A DNA stretch of 64,000 bases from Lachnospiraceae bacterium UBA5899 (GCA_002432425.1 DJEL01000015.1:20834-84833), one strand, 5' to 3'; positions 25,359-41,288 are shown, counted from the stretch's first letter. Program-made: numbers and translations. Notes: generated by a model from the letters alone, not told the origin.

Positions 25359-28343
25359 ATGAAGCGAAGGGAAACCGGCAAAAAAATCATAGCGCTTGCA
25401 TTAACCGTTGCCATGGCAATGACCTTACTTCCCGGCACAGGGCTGGAAGGATATGCCAAGACAGACAAGTTGATGGATGATTTTGATGACATCATCAGTA
25501 CCTACAATATCGATCCTTCCATTCCTTCTTATAAAGAATATAAAAAGGAACACGAAGGCGGTAAGAAACCCGAAACGAGCATAGAGGTTCCGGCAGGAGA
25601 GTTTGTCAGATATGAAGAAAGCGACGCTCCCGCAACACCGGAAATCTATACGGATTACGAAGGCATGGCTGGAGACAGCGTGCTGACCAGTGAAGACTCC
25701 CTGATTGAGTTTGAGGTTACCGTACCGGAAAGCGGATTATACAATGTATCCGTTGTATACTATCCGGTGGAAGGCAAGAACTCCGATATCGAGAGAAGCT
25801 TTTTCGTAGACGGCGAGTTACCGTTTGCGGAACTGTCGCTTTTATCCTTCACAAGAGTCTGGGCAAACTACGGAGAATCTTCCTATGTAAATGAAGACGG
25901 CGTTACCATACTGGAGTGGGCAAAAGACAACCAGGGCAACGATGTAAAACCCAAGACTGCGGAAATTCCGGAATGGCAGTCCCGGTATTTATACGACAGC
26001 AACGGTTACATCACAGAGCCCCTTTCCGTATACTTTGAAGAAGGAACCCACACTATTTCCATGGTTTCCTTAAAAGAGCCGATGCTGATTAACAAACTGG
26101 TACTGAACAACGCAGGCGATTCCAAAACCTACGAAGAGGTAAAAGCAGAGTGGGATGCGCAGGGTGCAAAAGACACCAGCGGCGTACATATCGTTCTGGA
26201 AGGTGAATATGCTTCCAAGACTTCTTCCCAGATGCTTTATCCCCAGCAGGACCAGTCCTCTCCTTCCGTATCTCCTTCCAGTGCAAAAGCACTCTTAAAC
26301 AACTCCATCGGCGGCAACTCCTGGAGACTGGTAGGACAGTGGATTGAATGGGATTTCGATGTGCCGGAAGACGGCTACTACGATATCACCCTTTACGATA
26401 AGCAGAACTTCTCAAGAGGTATTCACGTATCCAGACGAATTACCATTGACGGAGAAGTACCTTTTGAAGAACTGAACGATTACGCATTTGATTACGGACA
26501 GAGCTGGAGAGAAGATGTGATTTCCGATGACAACGGAACACCTTACAAATTCTACATGACCAAGGGACACCATACACTCCGCATGGAAGTTGTCCTGGGT
26601 GAGTTCTCCGAAATCGTAGGTCTTGTGGAAAACTCCGTACAGCAGCTCAACAACATCTACAGACAGGTTATCAAAGTAACCGGTGTACAGCCGGATACCT
26701 ACCGTGACTATCAGCTTGCCGCAACTCTGCCGGAGTTACACGACCAGCTGGTAGAAGCAAGAGAAACCTTAAATCAGGCATTGACCCGTCTGGAACAGGT
26801 AGCAGGAAAGAACACCGATAAGAAGACCGTTCTTCTGACCATGCTTGACCAGCTTGATGACCTGATTGACGATGAAGAATACTTTGTAAGAACCATTTCT
26901 TCCTATAAGGTAAACGTCAGAGCACTGGGTACCTGGATTACACAGGTTATCAGCCAGCCTCTGCAGATTGACCGCATCAACATCACATCCCCGGATGTGA
27001 AAGTAAAATATGACCACAAAGGATTTTTCGCTTCCGCAGGTTACGAAGTACAGAGACTGTATTACTCCTTCGTAATCGACTACAACAACATCGGCAGCGT
27101 AACGGAAGACAAGGACACCGAGTCCATTACCCTCTGGATTGGTTCCGGCCGTGACCAGGCAAACGTAATCAAATCCTTAGTCGATGAAAGCTTTACCAAT
27201 GAAACGGGCATCGGCGTAAACGTACAGCTCGTTGATATGACTACCTTATTAAAAGCAACACTGGTCGGCGAAGGCCCCGATGTGGCAATCCAGGTGGCAA
27301 ACACCAACGGTGTGGCAGGCGCCGTACTTGCCACCGGTAATGATACCCCGGTCAACTACGGTATCCGTAATGCGGTACTGGATTTATCCCAGTTTGACGA
27401 TGTGGACGAAGTAATGGCAAGATTCCCCGAAGCGGCATACGAACAGTTCGTTTACGACGGCGCCATTTACGCACTGCCGGAAACCATTACCTACCCGGTT
27501 ATGTTCTACCGCAAGGATATCTTAAAGGAAATCGGTCTGGAAGTACCTACCACATGGGACGAAGTAAAAGTAGCCATGACCGTGCTTGCCAAGAACCAGA
27601 TGGAATTCGGTATGTTGGCAAACGAGCAGATTTTCGCATCCATGCTCTACCAGAACGGCGGTACCTACTATAACGAAGACGGTACGGCATCCGCACTGGA
27701 CTCCGACATTGCAGTAAGCACCTTCAAGGACTTCTGCGAATACTACACAGATTACAAGCTGGACAAAGAAACCAGTGTGGAAGAACGTTTCCGTACCGGT
27801 GAATGTCCGATTATCATTGCAGACTACACCGTTTACAACAACTTCGCCGTATCCGCACCGGATATCGCAGGTCTCTGGAGCTTTACCCAGATTCCGGGTA
27901 CCGTAAAGGAAGACGGCAGCGTGGACCACTCCGTAGCAAGTACCGGTCTTGCCAGCATGATTATGGCGGATACCGAGCATGCGGATGCAAGCTGGCAGTT
28001 CTTAAAGTGGTGGACCAGCGAAGAAACCCAGACCAAGTACGGCCGTGAAATGGAAGGTCTGATGGGCAGTGCGGCGAGAGTACCGACCGCCAATTACGAA
28101 GCATTCTTAAATATGCCCTGGCCGGTAGATGACTTTGAAGCATTACAGGAATCCATGAAATGGGTGAAAGGTATTCCGCAGGTACCCGGCGGTTACTATT
28201 CCTGGAGAAACGTATACAATGCATTCTATACCGTAGTAAACAATAACGATACGGCGCTTCCGAGAGAAGAGTTGATGGATAAGGTTATTTACATCAATGC
28301 CGAAATTGATTACAAGCGTGAAGAGCTGGAACTGGATAAATAG
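25359..28343 (+). CDS. 994-aa secreted protein: two CBM-like beta-sandwich modules, a helical linker and a C-terminal family-1 solute-binding domain
   Basis: The signal peptide ends in GYA and has no Cys in the first 40 residues. Two related modules (GLYNVSVVYYP... and GYYDITLYDK...) are followed by an SBP-like C-terminal half from about 27.1 kb (ITLWIGSGRDQANVIKSLVDESF...). Confidence 0.75.
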   Translation: MKRRETGKKIIALALTVAMAMTLLPGTGLEGYAKTDKLMDDFDDIISTYNIDPSIPSYKEYKKEHEGGKKPETSIEVPAGEFVRYEESDAPATPEIYTDYEGMAGDSVLTSEDSLIEFEVTVPESGLYNVSVVYYPVEGKNSDIERSFFVDGELPFAELSLLSFTRVWANYGESSYVNEDGVTILEWAKDNQGNDVKPKTAEIPEWQSRYLYDSNGYITEPLSVYFEEGTHTISMVSLKEPMLINKLVLNNAGDSKTYEEVKAEWDAQGAKDTSGVHIVLEGEYASKTSSQMLYPQQDQSSPSVSPSSAKALLNNSIGGNSWRLVGQWIEWDFDVPEDGYYDITLYDKQNFSRGIHVSRRITIDGEVPFEELNDYAFDYGQSWREDVISDDNGTPYKFYMTKGHHTLRMEVVLGEFSEIVGLVENSVQQLNNIYRQVIKVTGVQPDTYRDYQLAATLPELHDQLVEARETLNQALTRLEQVAGKNTDKKTVLLTMLDQLDDLIDDEEYFVRTISSYKVNVRALGTWITQVISQPLQIDRINITSPDVKVKYDHKGFFASAGYEVQRLYYSFVIDYNNIGSVTEDKDTESITLWIGSGRDQANVIKSLVDESFTNETGIGVNVQLVDMTTLLKATLVGEGPDVAIQVANTNGVAGAVLATGNDTPVNYGIRNAVLDLSQFDDVDEVMARFPEAAYEQFVYDGAIYALPETITYPVMFYRKDILKEIGLEVPTTWDEVKVAMTVLAKNQMEFGMLANEQIFASMLYQNGGTYYNEDGTASALDSDIAVSTFKDFCEYYTDYKLDKETSVEERFRTGECPIIIADYTVYNNFAVSAPDIAGLWSFTQIPGTVKEDGSVDHSVASTGLASMIMADTEHADASWQFLKWWTSEETQTKYGREMEGLMGSAARVPTANYEAFLNMPWPVDDFEALQESMKWVKGIPQVPGGYYSWRNVYNAFYTVVNNNDTALPREELMDKVIYINAEIDYKREELELDK

Positions 28344-28360: not shown

Positions 28361-29314
28361 GTGAATGGAACAAATACAGAAAACACGGTATCGCAGGAAG
28401 CTCTGGACATAGCGAAAAAGCAGGCGACCTTAAGCTACCGTATCAAAAGAAACAAAGCTTCATATATGATGCTTGCCCCTTATTTCATCCTGTTTTTCTT
28501 CTTTACCGTTTTACCGGTTGTGATGAGTGTGGCTTTCAGTTTTACCTATTATAATATGCTGGAAATGCCGGAATTCATCGGTTGGAAAAACTACATCAAG
28601 TTGTTTTTGGAGGATGACATCTTCTTGACATCTTTAAAGAACACCTTAATCCTTGCGGTTATCACCGGACCCATCAGTTACTTTTTATGTCTGTTGTTCG
28701 CATGGATTATCAACGAATTCAAAGGATGGCTCAGAGCATTCTTAACCCTGATTTTCTATGCACCCAGTATCTGCGGTAACGCATACGTGGTATGGAACCT
28801 CATCCTTTCCGGCGACAGATACGGATACTTAAACGGTTTCCTCATGAAACTCGGTATCTTAGACGAAGCCATCATCTGGATGAAAACAGAAAAATATGTA
28901 TTGCCCATGCTGATTATTGTTCAGCTGTGGTTGTCCTTAGGTACCGGCTTCCTTTCCTTCATCGCAGGTCTGCAGACGGTTGATAAGTCCCTGTATGAAG
29001 CAGCGGCGCTGGACGGTGTCAAAAACCGTTGGCAGGAACTCTGGTATGTAACCCTTCCGGCTATGAAGCCCCAGTTGATGTTCGGTGCGGTTATGCAGAT
29101 TACACAGTCCTTTGCCATCGCCGATGTTTCCATCCAGCTGGCAGGTAACCCGTCAGTCAACTACGCCGGTGCTACCGTAGTTACCCACTTGCTTGACTAT
29201 GGTACCGTTCGTTTTGAAATGGGTTATGCATCCGCTATCGCAACAGTATTGTTCTTGCTCATGGTAGGAAGCAACATGCTGGTACAGAAATTGTTAAGGA
29301 GGGTGGGAGAATAA
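28361..29314 (+). CDS. carbohydrate ABC transporter permease (LplB/MalF-like)
   Basis: Six-TM pattern with EAA loop YEAAALDGVKNRWQELWYVTLP. Confidence 0.9.
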   Translation: MNGTNTENTVSQEALDIAKKQATLSYRIKRNKASYMMLAPYFILFFFFTVLPVVMSVAFSFTYYNMLEMPEFIGWKNYIKLFLEDDIFLTSLKNTLILAVITGPISYFLCLLFAWIINEFKGWLRAFLTLIFYAPSICGNAYVVWNLILSGDRYGYLNGFLMKLGILDEAIIWMKTEKYVLPMLIIVQLWLSLGTGFLSFIAGLQTVDKSLYEAAALDGVKNRWQELWYVTLPAMKPQLMFGAVMQITQSFAIADVSIQLAGNPSVNYAGATVVTHLLDYGTVRFEMGYASAIATVLFLLMVGSNMLVQKLLRRVGE

Positions 29315-30216
29315 TGAAAAAACAAAAAGATTATTTGAAGCCCTACAAGAAAAGACGTTTCTTTAAGCCGAAGGAAAAGAAATTAAACCGTTCCATGGCG
29401 GGAAACACTTTACTGTTTGTTCTGATGGCCATCTGCGGCGTAGCCATGGTGCTCCCTCTGGTTATGGTTATCAACAACTGCTTAAAGCCTTTGGATGAAT
29501 TGTATCAGTTCCCTCCCAAGATTTTTGTAAGAAACCCTACTCTGGAAAACTTCTCCGATTTGTTCACTCTGATGAACGACTCCTGGGTACCCTTTTCCAG
29601 ATATATCCTGAATACCATTATCATTACCGGCGGCGGTATGGTCGGCCACGTAATCATTGCATCCCTGGCGGCATATCCTCTGGCAAAGCACAATTTCCCC
29701 GGAAAGAACATTCTGTTCCAGATGGTAGTGCTTTCCATGATGTTCTCCTGGACGGTTACCCAGACCCCCCAGTACATGATTATTTCCTGGTTACATATTA
29801 ACAACAGCTACTGGGCACTGATTTTACCGGCTTGTGCGTTTGGTATGGGTCTTTACCTGATGAAGCAGTTCATGGAACAGCTTCCCGATTCCTTAATGGA
29901 GTCAGCCAGACTGGACGGCGGTAATGAATGGACCATCTTCTGGAAAATCGTAATGCCTAACGTTAAGCCGGCATGGCTGACACTGGCAATCTTCCAGTTC
30001 CAGCAGATGTGGGGCAACACCGGCAGTACCTTCCTCCGCGACGAAGACTTAAAGCCTCTGCAGTATGCACTGCAACAGATTTCCGCAGGCGGTACCGCAA
30101 GAGCCGGCGCGGCAGCAGCCGTTACCTTTATCATTGCAGCAGTACCCATTACCTTCTTCTTGATCTGCCAGAAGAACGTATTGGAAACCATGACATCATC
30201 CGGTATGAAAGACTGA
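29314..30216 (+). CDS. carbohydrate ABC transporter permease (LplC/MalG-like)
   Basis: TAATG 1-nt overlap with the previous gene. EAA loop MESARLDGGNEWTIFWKIVMP. Confidence 0.9.
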   Translation: MKKQKDYLKPYKKRRFFKPKEKKLNRSMAGNTLLFVLMAICGVAMVLPLVMVINNCLKPLDELYQFPPKIFVRNPTLENFSDLFTLMNDSWVPFSRYILNTIIITGGGMVGHVIIASLAAYPLAKHNFPGKNILFQMVVLSMMFSWTVTQTPQYMIISWLHINNSYWALILPACAFGMGLYLMKQFMEQLPDSLMESARLDGGNEWTIFWKIVMPNVKPAWLTLAIFQFQQMWGNTGSTFLRDEDLKPLQYALQQISAGGTARAGAAAAVTFIIAAVPITFFLICQKNVLETMTSSGMKD

Positions 30217-30231: not shown

Positions 30232-31746
30232 ATGAAAAAAATGACAAAGTTAAAAAAGATGCTTTCCCTCTGTCTTACCGCAGTAGTGCTTGCCTTTACC
30301 GCTTCCGATGTGGCATCGGCATCCACCCTGCCGTATGACTCCTACAATTACGACTACAGAGAGTACATCCATTTTACACCGGCACCTTATGTACCGGCCG
30401 GTTCCATTACCGGCAGCAGCTTCACCTACAATGGAGAGCCTCTCGGAAACTTCGTAAATCCGCAGGATATGTGTCAGGCAGACGACGGCAATATTTACAT
30501 CGCAGATACCGGCAACAACCGTATCGTAGTTCTTGACAAACAAATGAAAAACGTAGTAAACGTCATCACTGCCTTTGACAACAACGGAACGGAAGATACC
30601 TTCAACATGCCTTACGGCGTGGCAGTTTCCGAAAACGGTCAGGTGTATGTGGCGGACTCCCAGAACCACAGAGTCGTGGTACTGGAAAAGGACGCAACCT
30701 TAGTAAAAATTGTGGAAAATCCCAAGTCCGAAAGCTTGGATGACAATTATGTGTTTACACCCTTAAAAGTAACGGTTGACTATGCAGACAGAATTTACGT
30801 CATTGCACAGAACATGTTCGAGGGTATCATGGTATTTGAAAGCAACGGTAATTTCTCCAGCTTCTTCGGTACCATTAAAGTAGAAATCACTCTCTGGGAG
30901 AAATTCTGGAAGAGACTGGCAACCAAAGAGGAACGTGCAAAGCAGCAGCTTTATATCCCTACCGAATTTACCGGTATCGATATCGACCCCTCCGGCTTCG
31001 TATATGCGACCAACATTGACTCCACCGGCGTACAGGGTGTCAGACGGTTAAATCCCCGCGGTGAAGATGTTATCAAGAAGGGGCAGAACAAGAACGTAGG
31101 CGGCGACCTCTGGATAAGCGGCACCAGCGACTATGCGGGACCTTCCCAGTTCACCGACGTCGTTTACCGTGAAAACGGTATTTACTCCTGTCTGGACCGC
31201 AAGAGAGGCAGAATTTTCACTTACGACCATGAAGGCAACCTGCTTTACATCTTCGGCGGACTCGGTACCCAGGAAGGAACCTTCTTCATGCCGGTAGCCA
31301 TCGAAGACATCGGCGGCAGCCTGGTAGTGCTGGACGCAACCGGTTCTTCCATCGTCTGCTTTGAAGAAACCGAATACGGCAGACTGATTAACGAGGCCGT
31401 AGCGCTCCGCTACGACGGTGACGAAACACAGGCGGTTGACCTCTGGAAAAGAGTCCTTGAATTAGATGAAAACAACGAGCTTGCCAATACCGGTATCGGT
31501 AAGGCATATCTTACCGCAGGCGATTATGTAAACGCCATGAAGTACTTAAAGCTCGGTATGAGCAGAGAATATTACTCCATCGCTTACAGACGTTACCGTA
31601 ACAGCAAGCTGACACAGAATGCAAACTACATTCTGACCGGTGTGGTAATCCTCATTGTGGTTTACCAGATTGTGAAGAGAGTGGTAAAGAAGAAAAAAGC
31701 GCAGGCCGCAATACTGAAACAGAAAGGGGGCAGCCAGAATGGGTAA
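30232..31746 (+). CDS. secreted NHL-repeat beta-propeller protein with TPR-like segment and C-terminal TM anchor
   Basis: Signal peptide, then repeated NHL-like blades (GNIYIADTGNNRIVVLD, GQVYVADSQNHRVVVLE, RIYVIAQN, GRIFTYDHEGN, SLVVLDATGSSIV). A TPR-like helix pair and the TM segment ILTGVVILIVVYQIV with a KKKK tail follow. Confidence 0.7.
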   Translation: MKKMTKLKKMLSLCLTAVVLAFTASDVASASTLPYDSYNYDYREYIHFTPAPYVPAGSITGSSFTYNGEPLGNFVNPQDMCQADDGNIYIADTGNNRIVVLDKQMKNVVNVITAFDNNGTEDTFNMPYGVAVSENGQVYVADSQNHRVVVLEKDATLVKIVENPKSESLDDNYVFTPLKVTVDYADRIYVIAQNMFEGIMVFESNGNFSSFFGTIKVEITLWEKFWKRLATKEERAKQQLYIPTEFTGIDIDPSGFVYATNIDSTGVQGVRRLNPRGEDVIKKGQNKNVGGDLWISGTSDYAGPSQFTDVVYRENGIYSCLDRKRGRIFTYDHEGNLLYIFGGLGTQEGTFFMPVAIEDIGGSLVVLDATGSSIVCFEETEYGRLINEAVALRYDGDETQAVDLWKRVLELDENNELANTGIGKAYLTAGDYVNAMKYLKLGMSREYYSIAYRRYRNSKLTQNANYILTGVVILIVVYQIVKRVVKKKKAQAAILKQKGGSQNG

Positions 31747-32371
31747 GTATTTCTCAAAAGACAAATGGAAGTATATGCTTTACACGGTGTCCCATCCCAT
31801 GGACGGATACTACTGGATACGCCACGCGGACAGAGGAAGCGTGCCTCTGGCAATCCTCATGGTTATCCTGTTTGCGGTAAGCTTCTCTGCAAACCGGCTG
31901 CTTGCCAGCTTCGTGGTAAATGACATTGACCCGAGGTCGGTAGACAGCCTTTACGAACTGCTCGGCGTACTGGCATTTTATCTTGTTTTGTGCGTCAGCA
32001 ACTGGTCGGTAACCTGTCTGATGAACGGCGAAGGCCGAATGAAAGACATTGCCATAGCGATTGGCTACGGCACGGTGCCGATTACGGTGATGATGGTAAT
32101 CAGTACCATTGTCAGCCAGGTAATTGCCGATGACGAGCAGGCGTTCTACGGATTGCTTTTAGGCGCCGGTATTGTATACGGTCTTATCATGATGCTGATT
32201 GGCATTATGCAGGTTCACAACTATACACTGGGTAAAACACTTCTTACCCTGTTTATTACCTTTATCGCCCTGCTGATTATTATTTTCTTAGTATTATTGT
32301 TAAGTAACCTGCTCGGCATGGTAGTAAACTTCTTCAAGAGTATTTACACAGAAATCATCTTTAGGACTTAG
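31739..32371 (+). CDS. Yip1-domain polytopic membrane protein
   Basis: 210 aa with about 5 TM helices. N-terminal HPMDGYYWIR resembles the bacterial YIP1 family. 8-nt overlap with the NHL gene. Confidence 0.65.
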   Translation: MGKYFSKDKWKYMLYTVSHPMDGYYWIRHADRGSVPLAILMVILFAVSFSANRLLASFVVNDIDPRSVDSLYELLGVLAFYLVLCVSNWSVTCLMNGEGRMKDIAIAIGYGTVPITVMMVISTIVSQVIADDEQAFYGLLLGAGIVYGLIMMLIGIMQVHNYTLGKTLLTLFITFIALLIIIFLVLLLSNLLGMVVNFFKSIYTEIIFRT

Positions 32372-32381
32372 GAGGCAGGAA

Positions 32382-34757
32382 ATGGATAAGAAAACCAAGA
32401 AAAAATACAAAAAAACCAAACTGCCTATGAGCCTGGCAAAAAAAGTATTCCTTACCGTTTTAGGTGTGGCAGTCATCTGTGTGGCAATTTACCTTTTGTA
32501 TTATTACTTCCATTATACCAGATACGCCAGGTACAAAGACTCCCTTTCTTCCTATGAATATGAAGAGGGCGGCGTATTCAATGCCATTCCGGAAAGCACG
32601 GCAGACGTGCCCGGCATGCAGCTTGCGGCGGAAAACGATTACTTAAAGCTTTATACCAACTTACAGACAGCGGATGTTGCCGTATACGACAAGAGAGACG
32701 GAAGCATCACTTACTCCACCCCGGTGGATGCGGACCGGGACAGCATGGCAAACGCCAGCAACTTAAACCTCTTAAAATCCCAGTTCGTAGTAACTTATTA
32801 CAATGCAGATGTAAAGTCCGGTACCTATGACTCCTACTCCCAGTGTGTAGCGAAAAACAACGTAACGGCACAGAGCATTGAAAACGGTATTCGCTACATG
32901 TACAAAATCGGCAGCGAAAAGGACAACAACGGACAGGAAGGCATCCACTTCGATATTCCGCTGGAATACCGCTTAAAAGATGACAGCTTAGAGGTATCCA
33001 TTCCGGTAAGCGGCATCAGGGAATACGGCAACGGTTCCATCGCCCGTATCCAGCTTCTCCGTTACATGGGCGCAGCCAAGAATGACGAAGAGGGCTACAT
33101 GGTAGTGCCGAACGGTTCCGGTTCCCTGATTTACTTTAACAACGGAAAGACAACGGCAGCTTCCTATTCCCAGTATATTTACGACATTGACCCGGTAGCG
33201 GCAAGCTACACCACCACCGAGAACATTACCGGTGTGAAGCTTCCTTTATTCGGCATCTGCCGTGCGGACAGAAGCCTGCTGGTAACCGTAGAGGACGGTG
33301 CTTCCACAGCACTGATTTCTGCAGGCATTTCCGGAGTGTATAACGATTACAACTATGCATTCCCGACCTTTGTACTTCGTAACATTGACAACTTAAGAAA
33401 CTTCGGCAACACCACACAGGACGTATTCGTACTGGAGTCCGATATGTACGATATCAACTGCAGGGTACGCTACACCTTCCTTACGAAAGAGGATAGCGGC
33501 TATGTGGGACTTGCCAATTACTACCGTAACAGACTTACCGCAGAGGGAGTTCTTACCAAGCAGCAGGCAACGGACAACATTCCTTTCTACTACGACATCC
33601 TCGCAGGTGTAAAGGAAACCTCCCATTTCTTAGGTGTGCAGTACTTACATACGTTCACCATGACAAGCTTCAAGGAAGCGGGAGAAATCTCCGATGCCTT
33701 AAAGGACAGCGGCGTTACCAATCAGGTTATGAACCTGCAGGGCTGGTTTAACGGCGGTTACTACCACGATGCTCCCAATAATATCAAGGGACTTACCAAG
33801 CTTGGAGGAAAGTCGGGACTGGAAAAGCTGAATGATACAGTGGCGGCAAACGGCGGTATCCTCTATGCGGATGTAGATTTCCAGGAAGTAACCTTTGCCG
33901 ATAAGTATTTCAACTACAATGCAGAAGCTTCCCGCTATTACGGAGCAGGCTATGTAGTGGCGCTCGGTCAGGTCAACCCGACTACCCTGTATAACAGCTC
34001 CGGCTTAAGCTACTCTGAAACCAAATACGATATTCTTTCTCCAAAGTACCTGCCCAGGTATGTAGGCAGCTTTGCAAAGAAAATAAAGAAATATGATGTG
34101 GACGGCATTTCCTTAAGAGATTTAGGCGACATGCTGGCATCCGACAAGAGAAGAACAAACGTTATCAACAGAGAACAGGCTCTCGATATTGTACTTTCCC
34201 AGTTTGATGTGCTGGAAGGCACCGGCAAGAAACTGATGACGGAAAGAGCAAACAGCTACGCATTTGCTTACAGCTCCGACATCTTAAATGTGCCTCTCAC
34301 CGGAAACGATTTCCAGATTATCGATGAAAGCATTCCTTTGTACGAGATGATTATACACGGAAGTATTTCCTATTCTTCCGAATTACTCAACTTCGAGGAT
34401 GAGGACCATATGCAGACCAAGATGCTGCAGATGATTGAAGCAGGAGCATCTCCCCACTATGTATTTACCTGGGAAGACTCCAGCAAGATGAAAGAAACCG
34501 GTTTAAGCAGATATTACGCAACCACCTTTACTACCTGGAAGGACGATGCCGTAAAGGTATACGAACAGGTAAATGATCCCCTTAAGAATGTAACGGGCGC
34601 CATTATGGTGGGACACGAAATCTTAGACAACGGTGTCCGCAAAGTAACTTACGACAACGGCGTAACCATTTATGTAAACTACAGTGATGAAGACTTAGCA
34701 GCAGACGACGGAAAATCCGTTCCGGCATTAAGCTACAGATTGGAGGGGGCTAACTAA
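32382..34757 (+). CDS. 791-aa N-terminally TM-anchored ectoprotein of unknown function (DUF5696-like by recollection)
   Basis: K-rich cytoplasmic head, one TM helix (VFLTVLGVAVICVAIYLLYYY), and a large extracellular body with no CAZy motif I can recognise. Strong AGGAGG RBS. Confidence 0.5.
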   Translation: MDKKTKKKYKKTKLPMSLAKKVFLTVLGVAVICVAIYLLYYYFHYTRYARYKDSLSSYEYEEGGVFNAIPESTADVPGMQLAAENDYLKLYTNLQTADVAVYDKRDGSITYSTPVDADRDSMANASNLNLLKSQFVVTYYNADVKSGTYDSYSQCVAKNNVTAQSIENGIRYMYKIGSEKDNNGQEGIHFDIPLEYRLKDDSLEVSIPVSGIREYGNGSIARIQLLRYMGAAKNDEEGYMVVPNGSGSLIYFNNGKTTAASYSQYIYDIDPVAASYTTTENITGVKLPLFGICRADRSLLVTVEDGASTALISAGISGVYNDYNYAFPTFVLRNIDNLRNFGNTTQDVFVLESDMYDINCRVRYTFLTKEDSGYVGLANYYRNRLTAEGVLTKQQATDNIPFYYDILAGVKETSHFLGVQYLHTFTMTSFKEAGEISDALKDSGVTNQVMNLQGWFNGGYYHDAPNNIKGLTKLGGKSGLEKLNDTVAANGGILYADVDFQEVTFADKYFNYNAEASRYYGAGYVVALGQVNPTTLYNSSGLSYSETKYDILSPKYLPRYVGSFAKKIKKYDVDGISLRDLGDMLASDKRRTNVINREQALDIVLSQFDVLEGTGKKLMTERANSYAFAYSSDILNVPLTGNDFQIIDESIPLYEMIIHGSISYSSELLNFEDEDHMQTKMLQMIEAGASPHYVFTWEDSSKMKETGLSRYYATTFTTWKDDAVKVYEQVNDPLKNVTGAIMVGHEILDNGVRKVTYDNGVTIYVNYSDEDLAADDGKSVPALSYRLEGAN

Positions 34758-35681
34758 ATGAAAAAGAAGAAAAAACTTACTCTTCTCCAGAAAAGAAGCT
34801 TAACAGGTTATTTATTCATTCTCCCCTGGGTTGTGGGATTTATCCTCTTCTATGTAAGATCCCTTGTCATGACAGGTCAGTTTGCTTTTTCCAAGCTGAC
34901 CATGGACACCATCGGAGGCGGTTATAAGTTAGATTTCGTAGGACTTGACAACTTTATTTACGCATTCCGCGTACACGGCTCCTTCAAACAGGTGCTGACC
35001 ACTTCCGTACTGGATATGCTGATTGACGTACCTCTCATTACTTTCTTCAGTTTGTTCATGGCGATGCTTCTGAATAAGAAGTTCCCCGGAAGAGCCATCG
35101 TAAGAGCGATTTTCTTCTTACCGGTTATCTTAAATTCCGGTGCGATTACCGCAGCCATGGAATTGAGTGAACAGATGATGGCAGGCGGTATTGCTACCCA
35201 GGTAGCGGAAACGGGAGCCACAGCGGGAAGCACCATTGCATTCGATATTGATTACCTGATTGATATGTTCTTAAACTTAGGACTTCCGGCAACACTGCTT
35301 GACTACATCGTAGCGGCGGTAGCCCGTATCAACGATATCATTGCCGCATCCGGTATTCAGATTATTATCTTTATCGCAGCGCTGCAGTCCATCCCCGGTT
35401 CCATGTACGAGGTTGCCAAGATTGAAGGTGCTACCGGATACGAAACTTTCTGGAAGGTAACCTTCCCCATGGTAATGCCTCATATCATTACCAACGTGGT
35501 ATACACCATCGTGGACAGCTTTACGGAAAGCAAAGTAGTAGACCTGGCGTACGACGTAGCATTTACAAATTTCAATTACGGTTTGAGCTCCGTATTCAGT
35601 TTGGTCAGCACGGTAATCACCTGTGTGATACTAATTGCAATATGCGGCGCAATACAGAAACGAACCTTCTACTATAACTAA
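34758..35681 (+). CDS. carbohydrate ABC transporter permease (second system, MalF-like)
   Basis: The ATG directly abuts the upstream TAA. EAA loop YEVAKIEGATGYETFWKVTFP. Confidence 0.85.
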   Translation: MKKKKKLTLLQKRSLTGYLFILPWVVGFILFYVRSLVMTGQFAFSKLTMDTIGGGYKLDFVGLDNFIYAFRVHGSFKQVLTTSVLDMLIDVPLITFFSLFMAMLLNKKFPGRAIVRAIFFLPVILNSGAITAAMELSEQMMAGGIATQVAETGATAGSTIAFDIDYLIDMFLNLGLPATLLDYIVAAVARINDIIAASGIQIIIFIAALQSIPGSMYEVAKIEGATGYETFWKVTFPMVMPHIITNVVYTIVDSFTESKVVDLAYDVAFTNFNYGLSSVFSLVSTVITCVILIAICGAIQKRTFYYN

Positions 35682-35698: not shown

Positions 35699-36667
35699 AT
35701 GCAGATGATTGCAAAGGCAAAAAAAGTGTTAAGTGATCCCGACCAGACCAAGAGCTTCTTAAACAGTGTGAAAAACCTCTTAGTCAACCTGCTGCGTGCA
35801 GCCATTCTGATTGGCGTCGGCTATGTAATTCTTTCTCCGGTAATCGGTATTATCGTAAACTCCATCTCATCCAACAAGGATGCTTACAATCCGATGGTGT
35901 TCGTATTACCGCAGTTCCCCACATTGGAGCGATACGCCTTGGTTATAGAAAGAATGAATTATTTCCCTACCATGTTTAAGGATCTTCTTTATACCCTGAC
36001 ACTGACGGCACTGCAGCTTTTAGTGTGTTCCATGGTAGGTTACGGATTTGCAAGATTTGATTTCCCTCTTAAAAAGTTACTGTTCGGATGCGTGGTAGTC
36101 ATGATTGTCATCCCGGCACATACCATCATGCTTCCCTTATACATGACTTTCAAGAGCTTTGATCCGTTTGGTATTGTTTCCGCCATCAAAGGTACACCGG
36201 GTATCATGGGTACGGTTGTTCCCATGTATATCATGACGCTGCTCGGATGCGGTGTCCGTTCCGGTCTTTACATTTATATTTTCAACCAGTTCTTCCGCGG
36301 ACTTCCCAAAGAAATCGAAGAAGCGGCACTGGTAGACGGATGCGGTGTATGGTATACTTATTTCAGAATCATGTTAATCAATGCAATGCCCGCTGTCATT
36401 ACGGTAGCAGTATTCTCTATCGTATGGCAGTTCAATGATACTTTTTATGCGAAGCTATTTCTGATTAGCGAGGACGTGGTAATCAGTAAGAAGATTTCCA
36501 GTTTGCAGGCGGTTATTGCAAACGCGGATAAAATCTTAGATACTACCATTCAGGAACTTTACCTGGATGCCGGTATCGTACTCATTATCTTACCGATACT
36601 TATCATTTACCTCGTTTTACAGAAATACTTTATAGAGGGTGTGGAGAGAAGTGGTATCGTAGGCTAA
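35699..36667 (+). CDS. carbohydrate ABC transporter permease (second system, MalG-like)
   Basis: EAA loop EEAALVDGCGVWYTYFRIMLINAMP in a six-TM pattern. Confidence 0.85.
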   Translation: MQMIAKAKKVLSDPDQTKSFLNSVKNLLVNLLRAAILIGVGYVILSPVIGIIVNSISSNKDAYNPMVFVLPQFPTLERYALVIERMNYFPTMFKDLLYTLTLTALQLLVCSMVGYGFARFDFPLKKLLFGCVVVMIVIPAHTIMLPLYMTFKSFDPFGIVSAIKGTPGIMGTVVPMYIMTLLGCGVRSGLYIYIFNQFFRGLPKEIEEAALVDGCGVWYTYFRIMLINAMPAVITVAVFSIVWQFNDTFYAKLFLISEDVVISKKISSLQAVIANADKILDTTIQELYLDAGIVLIILPILIIYLVLQKYFIEGVERSGIVG

Positions 36668-36713: not shown

Positions 36714-38594
36714 ATGAAGAAGTTGAAGAAGAAAATTTTATCCTGCCTTCTGGCAGGCGCCATGGTTCTGTCTTTAGCAGCATGTGGCGACAACACAAAT
36801 GAATCGGCATCCAATGACGGTTCCACAACACCGGCTGAAAGCCAGGACAATACCGTGGCTGACGAAGCTGCAAGCATCGACTTCGAAGATGGCAATATGG
36901 GCTTCGTAGCACCGTATTTGCAGAAGGGTGATGCCGCACAGGTAGAACTTTCCATCGTAGATTATAACGGCAGCAAAGCACTGCAGGTTAAGAATGTGGA
37001 TGAAAAAGTTCCCTATGTAGCATTTGATGCAACCAGCCTTTTGGGTGCTGACGTTGCAAAGGTAGCAACAATTGAAATGACGTTAGGTGTTTCCTATGAC
37101 GATGGCAGCTTCAATGCCGTAGCAGGTGACCTGATTGCATGGAGTGGTGAAGACCTCACCGAATCCACCGATCCCTGGAGCGTTTATATGGAAAACCAGA
37201 ATCCCAAGAAGGCAGCTATGACCTTAGGCGAAGGTGAAGAATTCATTGCTGATGCAGGCAACATCTTCATGATTAACTTAAAAACAGACAACGGTCTTAC
37301 CGACGGAAAGGGTGCAGCGACTCTTTACATCGACAACATCCGTTTCTTAGATGCTTCCGGAAATCTTTTAACCGCAGATTCTTCCGTAGCATTTGCAGCT
37401 CCTGCCGGATTTGAAGGCAGCACAGGAGTTGACCCTAACCTTTACATCGTATCCGGTGCAGTTGAATTTGCTGATTTCGCATGCACAGGCGATGCATGGA
37501 GCCAGAACGGTTTTGACATTCCTGAAGATGTACTTGCAGCATTAGTACCCGGTTCTGTAGTAGAATTAAGCTTCAGCAGCGAAGACGGCGACCTCTGGTT
37601 AGTAATGCCCGATTCCGCAGCAGGCTGGATGAGAGTCGGTGTTGGTAATGCAGACGGCAGCGGCAGCGCAGATGCTGTTTGCTCCAACGGCGTATGCCAG
37701 GTAACCTACGAGCAGTTAGCAGCAGTTCTTGGTGATGACACCTCTACATGGGGCGGCAGAATGCAGGCTGAATCCGATACCGCATGGGAAGTATTCAGCG
37801 TAAAGGTTGGCCAGGGCGCAAGCGTTCTTGCAACTTCAAACCCCGTTGAATTCGCAGGCTTTGCTTGCTCCGGTGATGCATGGAGCCAGAACGGCTTTGA
37901 CTTTACCGAAGATGTACTTGCAGCATTAGTTCCCGGAACCGCTCTGGAGTTAAGCTACACCAGCGAAAGCGGCGACCTTTGGACTGTATTCCCTGACTCC
38001 GCAGCAGGCTGGATGAGAGTCGGTGTTGGCAATGCAGACGGCAGCGGCAGCGCAGATGCAATCTGCTACGATGGCAAGTGCTATATTCCTTATGACATGA
38101 TCGTTGCAGCTCTTGGAGAAGACAGCTCTGCATGGGGCGGAAGACTTCAGGCTGAATCCGATACCGCGTGGGAAGTTTACAGCGTAAATGTTGTAAATGC
38201 TACTCCGATGACTCCGGCAGGCAACTATGTTGCATTTGAAGGTGCAGCATGCTCTGGTGATGCATGGAGCCAGAACGGTGCAGACATTACCGAAGAAGTA
38301 CTTGCAGCATTAGTACCCGGTTCCGTAGTAACCATTAACTTCAGCAGCGAAGACGGCGACCTTTGGATTGTAATGCCCGATTCCGCAGCAGGCTGGATGA
38401 GAGTTGGTGTTGGTAACGCAGACGGCAGCGGCAGCGCAGATGCTGCATGCTTAAACGGTACCTGCCAGGTAACCTATGACATGTTAGCAGCAGTTCTCGG
38501 TGATGATACTTCTACATGGGGCGGCAGAATGCAGTTTGAATCTGACACCGCATGGGAAGTTTACAGCGTAAGCGTAGGCCAGGCTGCAAGATAA
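36714..38594 (+). CDS. surface lipoprotein: N-terminal CBM-like domain plus three 128-aa tandem repeats
   Basis: Lipobox SLAACG. The N-terminal beta-sandwich-like domain ends in ATLYIDNIRFLD. Three repeats follow, each with GDAWSQNG and DSAAGWMRVGVGNADGSGSADA cores. The start is uncertain, as GGAGG is only 1 nt from ATG 36714. Confidence 0.7.
   Translation: MKKLKKKILSCLLAGAMVLSLAACGDNTNESASNDGSTTPAESQDNTVADEAASIDFEDGNMGFVAPYLQKGDAAQVELSIVDYNGSKALQVKNVDEKVPYVAFDATSLLGADVAKVATIEMTLGVSYDDGSFNAVAGDLIAWSGEDLTESTDPWSVYMENQNPKKAAMTLGEGEEFIADAGNIFMINLKTDNGLTDGKGAATLYIDNIRFLDASGNLLTADSSVAFAAPAGFEGSTGVDPNLYIVSGAVEFADFACTGDAWSQNGFDIPEDVLAALVPGSVVELSFSSEDGDLWLVMPDSAAGWMRVGVGNADGSGSADAVCSNGVCQVTYEQLAAVLGDDTSTWGGRMQAESDTAWEVFSVKVGQGASVLATSNPVEFAGFACSGDAWSQNGFDFTEDVLAALVPGTALELSYTSESGDLWTVFPDSAAGWMRVGVGNADGSGSADAICYDGKCYIPYDMIVAALGEDSSAWGGRLQAESDTAWEVYSVNVVNATPMTPAGNYVAFEGAACSGDAWSQNGADITEEVLAALVPGSVVTINFSSEDGDLWIVMPDSAAGWMRVGVGNADGSGSADAACLNGTCQVTYDMLAAVLGDDTSTWGGRMQFESDTAWEVYSVSVGQAAR
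37461..38591 (+). repeat. three in-frame tandem repeats of 384 bp inside the lipoprotein gene
   Basis: Repeat starts GTTGAATTTGC 37461, GTTGAATTCGC 37845 and GTTGCATTTGA 38229. Long near-identical nucleotide stretches such as GCAGCAGGCTGGATGAGAGT.GGTGTTGG.AA.GCAGACGGCAGCGGCAGCGCAGATGC. Confidence 0.9.
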
Positions 38595-38638: not shown

Positions 38639-40126
38639 ATGAAGAATTTAAAGAAATTTTTAGCTCTTGGCCTTGCTGTATGCATGACTCTGTCTGTAGC
38701 AGCTTGTGGCAAGACCGGAACCAATGACGGTAACGGCGGCAGCACCAACAACGGCGGCGCTTCCACTCCTTCCGGACACAACAGCGAAATTACCATCGGT
38801 ACCTGGTGGGTTCAGTACTACGACAGCTCACAGTCCAAGGTAGAAGATGACCCTTCTTATGCAGCTAACGTTGATGCAGAAGGCGATGATGACGCAAAGA
38901 AGGAAGAAAAAGCGTTCAACCGCGGCATCGCAGAAAAGAAGCTGGCTAACGTTAAGAAAATCGAAGAGAAATATGATGTTAAATTCTACTGGACCAACTT
39001 AACCTACAACGGTGTTAAGGAATCCATCAACAACTCTATCTTAGCAGGTTCACCTGATTGTGATATCTACTTAGTAGAGCCCGGATTTGGTATTCCCGCT
39101 CAGTACAATGGCTTAGCTATCGACTTAAAGACCATTTTACCGGAAGACCATGACATCTTCACAACCCAGACGGTTGCTACTTACTTAGACCTTGGCGACG
39201 GCAAGGCCTGCCTCATCAAGCAGCAGGCTGCTGAACAGCAGGTTGCAGATACCTATCCTTTGGCATTCAACGTACAGATGCTTGAGGAAAACAACCTCGA
39301 AGATCCCCGCGACCTGTGGGAACGCGGTGAATGGACATGGGATAAGTTCAACGAATACATGAAGGTTCTGACCCAGGATACCGATGGTGACGGACAGACC
39401 GACCAGTACGGATACTGCGGTTACGAAAATGAAACCTTTGAACAGCTTTGCATGAGCAACGGTACCGGCGTAGCAGGCGGCCAGACAGAAACCCTGTCTT
39501 CTGCAGCAACCGGAGAAGTTCTTCAGGAAATGTATGATATGTACAACACCTGGAATGTATGCTATCCTTATGATTTTGAAGGAAATCCTTCCGATTCCAT
39601 GAGATATCAGTACAGAGAAGGTAACATCGGTTTCTTCCCTGCAGCAGCATGGATTCTTGCAGCTAACGCTGACTACGACTACGATGGAAGCAAGGGTACT
39701 ACCATTCCTTTCGATATCGCATTTGTTCGTTGGCCGGTAGGACCTAACGGTAACAAAGATACCAACCCCGGTAAGAACGACGTAGCAGGTGCATGCTACA
39801 TTATCCCTACCGGTGTTCAGGAGCCTGAATTGGTATTCAATGTATTATATGATATGTGGAACTGGTACGATGGTGATACCACGCAGCGTGACAACAAGGC
39901 AGCTCTGAACTGGTGGTATTTAACAACCGGTAAGACCGAAGATTACCAGAATGCAAACTTTGCAGTTATGCAGGAATGCGGTTCCAAGACAACCTTCGAT
40001 TTAATCTGGTCCCTGGATGTAAACTATGATTTACAGTACTTAATCAAGGGTGAAATGACACCTGCCCAGATTCAGGAAACCCATAAGCAGGAAGTTCAGG
40101 ATGGACTTGATGCATACTACAAATAA
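38639..40126 (+). CDS. carbohydrate ABC transporter substrate-binding lipoprotein (family 1 SBP)
   Basis: Lipobox SVAACG followed by a G/N/T-rich linker, then a typical sugar-SBP body. AGGAGG RBS and highly-expressed-type codon choice. Confidence 0.85.
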   Translation: MKNLKKFLALGLAVCMTLSVAACGKTGTNDGNGGSTNNGGASTPSGHNSEITIGTWWVQYYDSSQSKVEDDPSYAANVDAEGDDDAKKEEKAFNRGIAEKKLANVKKIEEKYDVKFYWTNLTYNGVKESINNSILAGSPDCDIYLVEPGFGIPAQYNGLAIDLKTILPEDHDIFTTQTVATYLDLGDGKACLIKQQAAEQQVADTYPLAFNVQMLEENNLEDPRDLWERGEWTWDKFNEYMKVLTQDTDGDGQTDQYGYCGYENETFEQLCMSNGTGVAGGQTETLSSAATGEVLQEMYDMYNTWNVCYPYDFEGNPSDSMRYQYREGNIGFFPAAAWILAANADYDYDGSKGTTIPFDIAFVRWPVGPNGNKDTNPGKNDVAGACYIIPTGVQEPELVFNVLYDMWNWYDGDTTQRDNKAALNWWYLTTGKTEDYQNANFAVMQECGSKTTFDLIWSLDVNYDLQYLIKGEMTPAQIQETHKQEVQDGLDAYYK

Positions 40127-40152
40127 GTCTTAATGACAGACTAAACAATGGA

Positions 40153-40171
40153 GGGGCGGGTACTCCGCCCC
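40153..40171 (+). other. GC-rich intra-operon hairpin after the SBP gene
   Basis: GGGGCGG-GTACT-CCGCCCC with no strong T-run. It overlaps the spurious 40148 start. Confidence 0.5.
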
Positions 40172-40192
40172 CTACCATTTATGGAGGACATA

Positions 40193-41215
40193 ATGAGTGA
40201 TATTAAGATGATTGCCCCTGCAGTGCCCAATGTTCCCTGGCAGGAACGTCCTGAAGGCTTAAAAGGGGCTCCAATTTGGAGATATACAGAAAATCCTATT
40301 ATCGGACGTAACCCGGTAGAAGGCGTTGCCAGAATTTTCAACAGTGCCGTAATGCCTTACAACGGCGAATTTATCGGCGTATTCCGCGGAGAGCAGACCA
40401 ACGGTATTCCTTATATTTACTTAGGACACAGCAAGGATGCTATTCACTGGGATTTTGAAAAGGATAAGATTCCTTTCGTAGATGAGAACGGCAATTCTTT
40501 CATGCCTTATTATGCATATGACCCGAGATTAGTTAAGGTAGAAGATACCTACTACATCATCTGGTGTCAGGATTTCTACGGCGCTTCCATCGGTATGGCA
40601 AAGACGAAAGATTTCAAGACCTTTGTCAGACTGGAGAACCCGTTTATTCCGTTCAACAGAAACGCAGTACTGTTTCCTCGTAAGATTAACGGCAAGTACA
40701 TGTTACTTTCCAGACCTTCCGACAGCGGACATACTCCTTTTGGCGATATCTTCTTAAGCGAAAGCCCTGATATGGTTTACTGGGGAAAGCACAGACATGT
40801 AATGGGAAGAAGCAGCGAATGGTGGGAATCTGTTAAGATTGGCGGCGGTGCAGCTCCTATCGAGACAAGCGAAGGCTGGTTGTTGTTCTACCATGGTGTA
40901 AGCGGCACCTGCAACGGTTTCGTTTACAGCATTGGCGGTGCTATTCTTGACCTTGACAATCCTTCCATCGTGAAGTATCGTTGTGAAACCTTCCTTCTCA
41001 CTCCTGAAGAGTGGTATGAGGAAAGAGGTTTCGTACCTAACGTAGTATTCCCCTGCGCAACCATTCATGATCCCGAATCCGGAAAGATTGCAATCTACTA
41101 CGGATGTGCAGACAGCTATGTAGGACTTGCCTTTACTAAGTTTGATGAAATCGTAGATTACATCAAGACACACAGTGTGGTAAGACAGGAAGATACCGAA
41201 ATCGGTATTCGATAA
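40193..41215 (+). CDS. GH130 beta-1,4-mannooligosaccharide phosphorylase-type (GH130_2-like)
   Basis: About 340 aa. GGAGGA lies 4 nt before ATG 40193. Motifs NPIIGRNP, FNSAV, YDPRLVKVEDTYYIIW, FNRNAVLFPRKINGKY and YYGCADS are typical of GH130. Confidence 0.85.
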   Translation: MSDIKMIAPAVPNVPWQERPEGLKGAPIWRYTENPIIGRNPVEGVARIFNSAVMPYNGEFIGVFRGEQTNGIPYIYLGHSKDAIHWDFEKDKIPFVDENGNSFMPYYAYDPRLVKVEDTYYIIWCQDFYGASIGMAKTKDFKTFVRLENPFIPFNRNAVLFPRKINGKYMLLSRPSDSGHTPFGDIFLSESPDMVYWGKHRHVMGRSSEWWESVKIGGGAAPIETSEGWLLFYHGVSGTCNGFVYSIGGAILDLDNPSIVKYRCETFLLTPEEWYEERGFVPNVVFPCATIHDPESGKIAIYYGCADSYVGLAFTKFDEIVDYIKTHSVVRQEDTEIGIR

Positions 41216-41230
41216 TGAAATGTTAAACTC

Positions 41231-41260
41231 TATGTGGGAGGTGCTTGCATCTCCCACATA
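41231..41260 (+). other. perfect 10-bp hairpin between GH130 and the esterase gene
   Basis: TATGTGGGAG (41231-41240) pairs with CTCCCACATA (41251-41260) across a 10-nt loop. No T-run. Confidence 0.6.
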
Positions 41261-41288
41261 TGCGATAAAACAGAGGAAACATGTGAAG

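Follow-up and report, generated by a model that had tools for sequence, protein, structure and literature searches.

In a 64,000-nucleotide (nt) stretch of DNA from Lachnospiraceae bacterium UBA5899 (GCA_002432425.1 DJEL01000015.1:20834-84833; hereafter, the window), three consecutive genes encode an NHL-repeat protein, a Yip1-family protein, and a protein of the Pfam family DUF5696 (PF18952). Judged from gene order and sequence divergence, this trio, the pair of ATP-binding cassette (ABC) transporter permeases on either side of it, and the two solute-binding proteins (SBPs) of these transporters are one ancient cassette, and this cassette recurs across hundreds of gut and soil Firmicutes. Our preferred reading, to which we give somewhat less than an even chance, is that the trio is an invariant accessory module of an operon-encoded carbohydrate-uptake cassette around two CUT1 importers (transporters A and B), in which Yip1 would act as a hub and the GH129-like ectodomain of the DUF5696 protein would serve importer B. 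The proposal of an earlier note on the same DNA, namely surface glycan capture or processing that feeds ABC import, is retained herein as the most reasonable one.

A tightly packed trio of envelope proteins

All three products of the trio are envelope proteins without assigned function, as judged from hydropathy and Pfam matches; moreover, the open reading frames (ORFs), their spacing, their domains, and their transmembrane (TM) topology are exactly as the earlier note had described them. The NHL gene follows the last gene of the upstream permease pair (PermA2) after 15 nt, the Yip1 start overlaps the NHL stop by 8 nt, 10 nt separate Yip1 from DUF5696, and 0 nt separate the latter from the downstream permease gene PermB1, which starts at the base right after the DUF5696 stop. 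A Shine-Dalgarno-like GGAGG or GGGGG motif lies 5-10 nt 5' of each trio start, and no convincing intergenic + strand terminator was found within 23.8-40.1 kb. Domains were called with Pfam, in which the three matches (Table 1) exceed the cut-offs of their models (20 bits for NHL, 28.6 for Yip1, and 25.6 for DUF5696); TM segments, signal sequences, lipoboxes, and EAA loops were read from hydropathy and motifs.

Recurrence of the cassette across Firmicutes

Homologous loci were drawn from two samples. A pattern scan of species-representative genomes (one genome per species) gave 523 stretches encoding a DUF5696 relative, of which the best 80 are termed the close loci (53-97% identity to the window DUF5696; nearly all labelled as Lachnospiraceae or as unclassified Clostridia/Bacillota). 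The distant loci are 80 of at least 495 metagenome stretches found with a distant DUF5696 subfamily as query (29-39% identity to that query); these were annotated with hidden Markov models built from the orthologues, with counts made only where the contig flank was long enough. The window DNA itself is ~96% identical to a gut metagenome-assembled genome (MAG) contig and ~92% identical to Clostridium sp. CAG:510, which marks its source as an uncultured Lachnospiraceae. One close relative (L002, CAVHWP010000002.1) is labelled "Bacteroidaceae bacterium" yet shares 96% DNA identity with the window over 22 kb; with all other relatives being Lachnospiraceae, this label probably reflects either a wrongly assigned taxonomy or a mistake in binning.

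The core order of the cassette is giant SBP (SBP_L), two permeases (PermA1 and PermA2), NHL, Yip1, DUF5696, two permeases (PermB1 and PermB2), and small SBP (SBP_S). In the 80 close loci, all follow the extended order GH26-CBM35, SBP_L, PermA1, PermA2, NHL, Yip1, DUF5696, PermB1, PermB2, CBM65x3 lipoprotein, and SBP_S, where GH and CBM denote glycoside hydrolase and carbohydrate-binding module, respectively. Close loci with enough flank have NHL and Yip1 upstream of DUF5696 (71/71), a permease pair downstream (70/71), and SBP_L with its permeases upstream (58/58). Among the distant loci, NHL is found upstream in 52/52, Yip1 upstream in 51/52, and a permease pair directly downstream in 60/61, with SBP_L and PermA upstream in 30-31/38. 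The neighbourhood that the earlier note described for other Firmicutes (large SBP, two permeases, NHL, Yip1, DUF5696) is hence near-obligate in both samples; because this gene order, with the trio syntenic with ABC importers, recurs in ~160 independent loci, the arrangement is far beyond chance.

The surroundings of the core are another matter. Two annotated records, of 33% and 27% identity, keep the core among different neighbours: Butyrivibrio fibrisolvens pNP243, with a histidine kinase, a response regulator, and GH43, and a Paenibacillus cellulosilyticus plasmid, with a UgpC-type ATPase and luciferase-like (flavin) oxidoreductases. Further cassettes occur in Paenibacillus sp. (with GH26 and GH2), in a Roseburia MAG (with GH26 and CBM65), and in an Epulopiscium MAG (with LacI and GH31). 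The flanks of distant cassettes hold GH26, GH130, GH5, GH43, GH32, GH18, CBM6, and CBM35, as well as LacI-type and AraC/histidine-kinase regulators, and GH5 dominates the flanks of mannan-type cassettes, only two of which hold GH36. Because the carbohydrate-active enzymes (CAZymes) beside it vary, the cassette is a general glycan-utilisation module and not a mannan speciality; for the same reason, we rejected the idea of a mannan-specific system. What the earlier note had seen as a trio wedged into a mannan locus is instead part of one ancient cassette that also stands beside GH43, GH31, GH32, GH18, and GH5, and once, as further evidence against a mannan-specific setting, beside flavin oxidoreductases.

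The cassette was found in Lachnospiraceae (Roseburia-, Butyrivibrio-, Agathobacter-, and Acetatifactor-labelled genomes) and in Paenibacillus, and several cassettes may share one assembly or contig (e.g., L162 and L165 on one contig). The DUF5696 family as such is large, since a search of 1.84 billion representatives with the single window sequence matched 4,721 clusters at 50% identity (E <= 1e-3). A DUF624 membrane protein, i.e., a further uncharacterised membrane protein accompanying sugar ABC operons, is encoded directly upstream of the giant SBP in the Roseburia MAG (L084 1975-2616), and DUF624 also occurs in two other mannan-type flanks.

Several features of these loci bear on how the core proteins are related to one another. 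The eight core proteins diverge in step, with pairwise identities that correlate at r = 0.94-0.98 over 96 complete cassettes, from which it follows that inheritance and divergence concern the cassette as a whole. In 24 loci, a single protein of 680-780 amino acids (aa) combines NHL and Yip1 (by domain coordinates, and in L082 by Pfam also), a fusion that fits the topologies predicted for the separate proteins: propeller outside, TM helix, basic cytoplasmic linker, and then the cytoplasmic N-terminus of Yip1. Anchoring is likewise widespread among homologues, with an N-terminal TM helix in 154/159 DUF5696 proteins, a C-terminal TM helix in 127/135 NHL proteins, and a lipobox in 95/108 SBP_S proteins; SBP_L is without a lipobox in 95/105. 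The NHL-Yip1 fusions, the overlapping or abutting stop and start codons, the near-universal membrane anchoring, and the co-diversification are all hints of a physical link between these proteins.

Nine loci (L119, L132, L138, L147, L150, L156, L162, L165, and L166) hold a reduced cassette without SBP_L and PermA, in which an NHL-Yip1 fusion (in every case), DUF5696, PermB1, PermB2, and SBP_S are kept. Given that these cassettes dispense with SBP_L and PermA, the tightest partner of the trio is transporter B, i.e., the downstream pair. Their DUF5696 proteins are enlarged to 930-1060 aa by an N-domain insertion of ~220 aa that has no Pfam match.

The DUF5696 protein as a remote relative of GH129

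The Pfam match of the window DUF5696 protein spans model positions 8-612 of 612. Its very basic cytoplasmic N-terminus is followed by one TM helix (22-40), which places the bulk of the protein outside the cell. An AlphaFold2 (AF2) model from 79 homologues (pLDDT 91.1, pTM 0.90) displays an N-terminal β-sandwich (~80-370), a (β/α)8 barrel (~400-737), and a C-terminal β-sandwich (742-788); it supersedes a first model from 44 close orthologues (pLDDT 68.6), which gave the same top matches. In Foldseek searches, the first two ranks were taken by GH129 (formerly GHL1; PMC5765458), i.e., 5opq (ZgGH129; E = 2.4e-35, TM-score 0.70) and 5wzn (NagBb; E = 1e-26, TM-score 0.72), followed by GH101 (E about 1e-20), GH36 (E about 1e-16), and, more weakly, GH31 in fifth place.

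Sequence profiles point the same way. A 58-sequence DUF5696 profile found ZgGH129 (E = 1.2e-9) and NagBb (E = 4.5e-8) in the PDB, via a match that covers the two terminal domains and, of the barrel, only the first half; hhalign of DUF5696 against two NagBb-like sequences, both stitched from frameshifted ENA contigs, gave a probability of 98.6% (E = 7e-15). Neither the single sequence (no match) nor a close-orthologue profile (nothing significant) detected a relative in the PDB. The NagBb-like GH129 genes in ENA assemblies (L086 3820-5725; L087 470-2368; P0390-P0401) are broken by frameshifts and in-frame stops, and their fragments carry precomputed Pfam matches to GH101 (PF12905) and to DUF5696 (PF18952); the Pfam DUF5696 model thus cross-detects GH129.

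Although the earlier note could match this 791-aa protein to no CAZy family by motif, profile searches, hhalign, AF2, and Foldseek together uncover a remote GH129/GH101-like match, and the GH-like (β/α)8 barrel that it had considered is present. Outright membership in GH129 was considered and rejected, as identity to GH129 enzymes is 13-16%, the single sequence finds no PDB relative, and the acid/base is not kept family-wide; with a Pfam family of its own, the protein does not fall clearly into a characterised enzyme family. As far as profiles and alignments can indicate, the relation of DUF5696 to GH129 is one of superfamily-level homology.

In the hhalign alignment and in the model, D580 of the window protein (end of β-4) aligns with the NagBb nucleophile D435, and by hhalign E621 (end of β-5) aligns with the acid/base E478; these NagBb residue numbers agree with the AYLD and SSEE motifs of the stitched sequence. 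The window protein itself thus carries both GH129-type residues. Conservation was scored over two sets, i.e., the 44 close orthologues (same mannan context) and 417 family members. Across the latter, the N-domain "VPDGSG" motif (242-247) and its surroundings are nearly invariant (G238 and G247, 100%; P243, 99.8%; G245, 97%), as are R597, N670, and E686 (99%), D270 and W455 (97%), D588 (95%), and D648, N624, and Y626 (94%). In the model, most of the conserved residues sit where barrel strands end at their C-terminal side or in the loops that follow, an exception being E686 at the end of helix α-7, with D580, D588, R597, E621, N624, Y626, D648, and N670, as well as W455, as candidate pocket residues. 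D588 and D648 are separated by 60 residues, as the nucleophile and the acid/base typically are in GH36/GH27 enzymes. Among 16 DUF5696 proteins of at least 900 aa, no fusion to another cassette protein was found, only N-domain insertions without Pfam matches. From the alignments and the modelled fold, we conclude that DUF5696 is a sister family of GH129 with a conserved pocket and with no conserved GH129-type acid/base, and that it is either a re-wired enzyme or a binding protein.

The NHL and Yip1 proteins

The NHL protein comprises a signal-like N-terminus, a propeller (~60-375), TPR-like helices (~385-441), a TM segment (463-481), and a basic cytoplasmic tail. Its profile matches PknD-derived six-bladed Pizza6 propellers (E = 1e-72, in 5-6 stretches) and PknD itself (1rwi, E = 2e-30), as well as consensus tetratricopeptide-repeat (TPR) proteins at 385-437, where Pfam gives sub-threshold TPR matches (385-441). 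By these profile matches, the ectodomain is predicted to be a six-bladed NHL β-propeller. A search of NCBIfam returned only sub-threshold matches for NHL and no model for Yip1 or DUF5696.

The Yip1 match extends over model positions 3-172 of 173, and the protein has five hydrophobic segments, both as befits a member of this family. Residues P20, N88, W89, G99, Y110, P114, H160, and E205 are invariant in 30 homologues, and a Yip1 profile found no solved relative in the PDB. Of the bacterial Yip1 relatives, YknW of Bacillus is the only one known to have been studied. YknW modulates assembly of the YknXYZ ABC transporter and is needed for that transporter (PMC4887032).

Two ABC importers of unequal conservation

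All four permeases keep their EAA loops, and PermA1 corresponds to PermB1, and PermA2 to PermB2, with ~25% identity; from these pairings and loops, two complete importer membrane units are apparent. Each pair, i.e., two BPD_transp_1 permeases with EAA loops alongside a sugar SBP, has the make-up of a CUT1 importer. The giant SBP_L of transporter A starts with an N-terminal hydrophobic segment without a lipobox, followed by two CBM35/CBM6-like β-sandwiches (~70-260 and 270-420), an antiparallel coiled coil (~435-500), and an SBP_bac_1/8 domain (~585-975). It matches sugar SBPs in the PDB (e.g., 5ysb, E = 4e-14), and its N-terminal profile (extension encoded at 25359-27100) matches the CBM35 structures 2w47, 2vzp, and 5x7g, along with coiled-coil designs. 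The missing lipobox sets SBP_L apart from the other secreted proteins of the operon. SBP_S of transporter B has no Pfam match and resembles the arabino-oligosaccharide-binding protein AbnE (6rjy, E = 5e-11); in L081, L084, and L085, its homologues either bear the annotation SBP_bac_1 or match that domain.

No cognate MsmK/MalK-type ATPase is encoded in the operon or in the 64-kb window, where the sole ABC_tran ORF (2339-3973) is of the ABC-F type with ABC_tran_Xtn, and an MsmK/UgpC-type ATPase gene is adjacent in 1 of ~165 related loci. Firmicutes usually rely on a shared ATPase (MsmK) encoded elsewhere, such that a missing ATPase does not exclude function.

Among distant cassettes, conservation differs widely between components, with identities of 24% for SBP_S, 31% for DUF5696, 34% for Yip1, 38% for NHL, 39-42% for PermB (PermB1, 42%), 47% for the SBP domain of SBP_L, and 53-58% for PermA (PermA1, 58%). 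DUF5696 is thus the fastest-diverging component after SBP_S, which fits the expectation for a specificity-bearing part. As for transporter A, its degree of conservation suggests a possible substrate-independent role.

A model for the cassette and its alternatives

Under the accessory-module reading, the cassette would operate as follows in the window locus. The lipoprotein GH26-CBM35 would cut β-mannan, and the CBM65x3 lipoprotein and the CBM35-bearing SBP_L would hold and concentrate the resulting fragments at the membrane surface. Yip1 would serve as a membrane hub that tethers the NHL/TPR propeller and the DUF5696 ectodomain beside PermB1/PermB2 and SBP_S. The GH129-like domain would then bind, and probably trim, the incoming oligosaccharides in a substrate-specific manner before handing them over to the binding proteins, with energy provided by a shared ATPase of the MsmK type, encoded at another site of the genome. 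In this scheme, the physical complex and the hub role of Yip1 are inferred, as are glycan binding or catalysis on the part of DUF5696 and the transfer of oligosaccharides to the importer. A glycan-facing role for DUF5696 is suggested by its GH129-like modelled fold, remote homology, putative conserved pocket, and fast divergence, and a nutrient-uptake role for the cassette by its GH flanks, the LacI, AraC, and histidine-kinase regulators, and the EAA loops.

Several observations weigh against this reading. (i) The residue aligned with the GH129 nucleophile is D580 in 44/44 orthologues, but only in 335/417 (80%) of family members. (ii) Of the 44 orthologues, 25 have N at position 621, 10 have D, 4 have S, 3 have E, and 2 have A; among the 417 family members, only 26% carry an acidic residue there. 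As the acid/base position is variable and the nucleophile position only 80% conserved, GH129-type hydrolysis cannot, by these alignments, be the common function of the DUF5696 family. (iii) The structural relatives are all α-glycosidases, yet many cassettes sit in loci for purely β-linked glycans (GH18 chitin, GH32 fructan), which argues against a simple debranching role. (iv) Transporter A is far more conserved than transporter B across contexts with differing CAZymes, and our model does not explain why. (v) The proposed hub role of Yip1 has a single precedent, and this comes from a different class of ABC transporter (a MacB-like exporter).

The first two of these points would be accommodated if DUF5696 were a non-catalytic pseudo-glycosidase, forming with the NHL propeller a surface glycan-binding or structural scaffold, or a lectin, in a role like that of Bacteroidetes surface glycan-binding proteins. 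We consider this unlikely, even though it would also suit a protein whose most invariant motif (G238, P243, G245, G247; 97-100%) lies in the N-terminal β-sandwich and not in the barrel, and a cassette that serves glycans of unrelated linkage. On its catalytic face, the barrel keeps D588, R597, N624, Y626, D648, and N670 in 94-99% of members, which would be unusual for a decayed site; a conserved polar face would, however, fit a binding pocket as well, leaving this argument weak either way.

Should DUF5696 instead be a substrate-specific extracellular retaining α-glycosidase, it could act here as an α-galactosidase that debranches galactomannan fragments prior to uptake, in place of the cytoplasmic GH36 of Roseburia intestinalis, with NHL and Yip1 being incidental. 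The nearest folds (GH129, GH101, GH36, and GH31) all belong to retaining α-glycosidases, the window protein has both GH129 catalytic equivalents, and D588 and D648, conserved at 94-95%, show the GH36-like spacing described above. Furthermore, the 64-kb window is without a GH36 or GH27 gene and GH36 is rare in mannan-type flanks, whereas R. intestinalis keeps a GH36 in its locus (PMC6385246). We nonetheless find this reading distinctly unlikely: E621 is replaced by N, S, or A in 31/44 close orthologues from the same mannan locus, the cassette also lies beside GH18, GH32, GH43, and GH5, where no α-galactoside is to be expected, and the near-obligate linkage to Yip1, NHL, and permeases, together with the NHL-Yip1 fusions, would go unexplained.

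Lastly, the trio might not act on a nutrient at all, and might instead sense outside substrate to control gating of the transporters, or restructure polymers of the cell's wall to give large fragments access to the importers, a very improbable reading which draws on the closeness of the NHL propeller to the PknD extracellular sensor domain, on the unexpected conservation of transporter A and SBP_L across substrates (hinting at a substrate-independent function), and on the α-GalNAc-type linkages that are acted upon by GH129/GH101 relatives and are also present in wall polymers, but for which separate regulators (LacI, or an AraC-type response regulator with histidine kinase) adjoining most cassettes, a DUF5696 protein among the fastest-diverging parts with several cassettes per assembly (less uniformity than one would look for in a housekeeping enzyme of the wall), and a trio without any output domain (kinase, DNA-binding, or cyclase) in Pfam and NCBIfam searches all count as difficulties.

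The accessory-module reading can also be extended. In a bolder form, which we ourselves deem doubtful, the cassette would constitute a stable Gram-positive "utilisome" supercomplex, in which the Yip1 hub would link a re-wired GH129-like ecto-(pseudo)enzyme and the NHL/TPR propeller to the two importers. The conserved transporter A and the unanchored SBP_L would then have a substrate-independent task (reeling in or threading long glycans), while the fast-evolving DUF5696, SBP_S, and transporter B would confer specificity. If true, Firmicutes would have a so far unrecognised route for taking up large pieces of glycan, with a functional parallel in the SusCD-based complexes of Bacteroidetes. If the trio is needed for uptake, genome-based predictions of fibre use and models of cross-feeding would have to include the module. 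DUF5696 could become the founding member of a new CAZy family, or of a class of pseudo-glycosidases tethered to transporters, and the cassette offers a tractable test of bacterial Yip1 function.

The mannan locus around the cassette

In the window, the cassette lies within a mannan locus (19936-49343; Table 1). Gram-positive polysaccharide utilisation loci are defined by a degradative CAZyme, a transporter, and a regulator, and this locus combines GH26, GH130, CE2, and GH2 with two ABC importers and LacI. No GH36/GH27 α-galactosidase and no GH113 were found in the locus or in the 64-kb window; the GH94 phosphorylase at the locus end fits glucomannan use.

In mannan-type cassettes, the operon begins with the GH26-CBM35 gene, which most of the 80 close loci have upstream of the cassette; it is a context gene outside the universal core. 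Its ORF opens with an ATG at 23802 that lacks a Shine-Dalgarno motif, and GGGAGA precedes the ATG at 23814; the true start is probably 23814, not 23802. The CBM65x3 lipoprotein gene keeps its position between PermB2 and SBP_S in the 80 close loci and is restricted to mannan-type cassettes; from its modules and lipobox, the product is probably a surface glycan-binding protein. The second GH130 ORF (44519-45751) has a GTG start that overlaps the epimerase gene by 58 nt, and its Pfam match begins at residue 90; its real start probably lies farther downstream.

Table 1. Genes of the mannan locus and its border in the window (window positions)
Feature	Position	Strand	Evidence or remark
GH2 mannosidase	19936-22386		Pfam
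GH26	22500-23459	-	
GH26 endo-mannanase with CBM35, predicted lipoprotein	23802-25334	+	Pfam GH26 E = 1e-73, CBM_35 E = 1e-18; lipobox AAGC
SBP_L, giant 994-aa SBP of transporter A	25359-28343	+	Pfam SBP_bac_8/1 at 603-896
PermA1, MalF-like permease of transporter A	28361-29314	+	Pfam BPD_transp_1; EAA loop EAAALDG at 213
PermA2, MalG-like permease of transporter A	29314-30216	+	Pfam BPD_transp_1; EAA-type loop ESARLDGG
NHL protein, 504 aa	30232-31746	+	Pfam NHL 61.4 bits
Yip1-family protein, 210 aa, five TM segments	31739-32371	+	Pfam Yip1 44.8 bits
DUF5696 protein, 791 aa	32382-34757	+	Pfam PF18952 659 bits, E = 8e-198
PermB1, MalF-like permease of transporter B	34758-35681	+	Pfam BPD_transp_1; EAA-type loop EVAKIEGA
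PermB2, MalG-like permease of transporter B	35699-36667	+	Pfam BPD_transp_1; EAA loop EEAALVDG
Lipoprotein with three CBM65 modules (CBM65x3)	36714-38594	+	Pfam CBM65_1 x3, E = 6e-74; lipobox LAAC
SBP_S, 495-aa lipoprotein SBP of transporter B	38639-40126	+	6rjy match E = 5e-11; lipobox VAAC
GH130, CE2, LacI, epimerase, GH130, SGNH esterase, GH94	40148-49343		Locus tail, in this order
LacI regulator	42364-43407		
GH94 phosphorylase (cellobiose/cellodextrin type)	46950-49343		End of mannan locus
OmpR-type response regulator, PAS histidine kinase	49451-51794		After GH94

Comparison with known systems

A literature search, made in a library of searchable papers, found none that names DUF5696, PF18952, or the combination of Yip1, NHL, SBP, and permeases, in keeping with the earlier note, which knew of no functional study; a 2026 paper on mannan use by colonic Bacillota leaves the cassette genes unmentioned. 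In Clostridium phytofermentans, the genes after Cphy1071 encode a plain SBP, two permeases, and LacI and are not those of the cassette; the portions of the expression supplements for this organism that were available carry no "NHL repeat" or "Yip1" annotation.

Individual parts of the cassette do have characterised relatives. The three-domain architecture of DUF5696 is shared with the GH129 enzymes NagBb of Bifidobacterium bifidum (5wzn), an α-N-acetylgalactosaminidase, and ZgGH129 (5opq/8rzk), a 3,6-anhydro-D-galactosidase, with GH101, GH36, and GH31 being more distant. DUF5696 differs from GH129 by its N-terminal TM anchor and by being always encoded with Yip1, NHL, and ABC permeases, whereas we know of no GH129 enzyme encoded in such company; its conserved D648 and VPDGSG motif are missing at the aligned positions of NagBb. 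The NHL ectodomain resembles in profile the six-bladed propeller of the PknD extracellular sensor domain (1rwi). Unlike PknD, the NHL protein has no kinase domain, its propeller being followed by TPR-like helices and a TM anchor, or by fusion to Yip1.

For Yip1, the nearest parallel is YknWXYZ of Bacillus subtilis/amyloliquefaciens, in which a bacterial Yip1-family multi-TM protein is likewise encoded with an ABC transporter (PMC4887032). There, YknYZ is a MacB-like exporter that has a membrane-fusion protein as partner and gives protection from a peptide toxin, whereas the window Yip1 is accompanied by type I sugar importers, a propeller, and a GH-like ectoprotein; the likeness to YknW is by family only. 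With CUT1 importers of the MalFGK2-E type, the cassette has in common BPD_transp_1 permeases with EAA loops, SBP_bac_1/8 binding proteins, and the lack of an operon-encoded ATPase. In contrast to the usual CUT1 system, it locks two importers together with three extra membrane proteins between the permease pairs, and its SBP_L has an extension of ~580 aa (two CBM35 domains and a coiled coil) and no lipid anchor.

As a locus, the window is closest to MULL/MULS of R. intestinalis, with which it shares GH26, two GH130, an epimerase, CE2 and SGNH esterases, and LacI, as well as, in our proposal, the ABC import of manno-oligosaccharides (PMC6385246). The R. intestinalis locus has one importer (RiMnBP and two permeases), is without NHL, Yip1, and DUF5696, and carries GH36 and GH113 (PMC6385246), neither of which is present in the window locus. 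The window, for its part, has two importers, a 994-aa CBM35-bearing SBP, the CBM65x3 lipoprotein, and the trio. The enzymatic periphery is therefore known from Roseburia mannan loci, and the trio-bearing double-importer cassette is widespread and appears to be as yet unstudied. Current understanding of glycan uptake in gut Firmicutes envisages a surface enzyme, one binding protein, and one ABC importer; with the cassette, which lies in loci for several dietary fibres, a second importer and three invariant membrane proteins join this picture.

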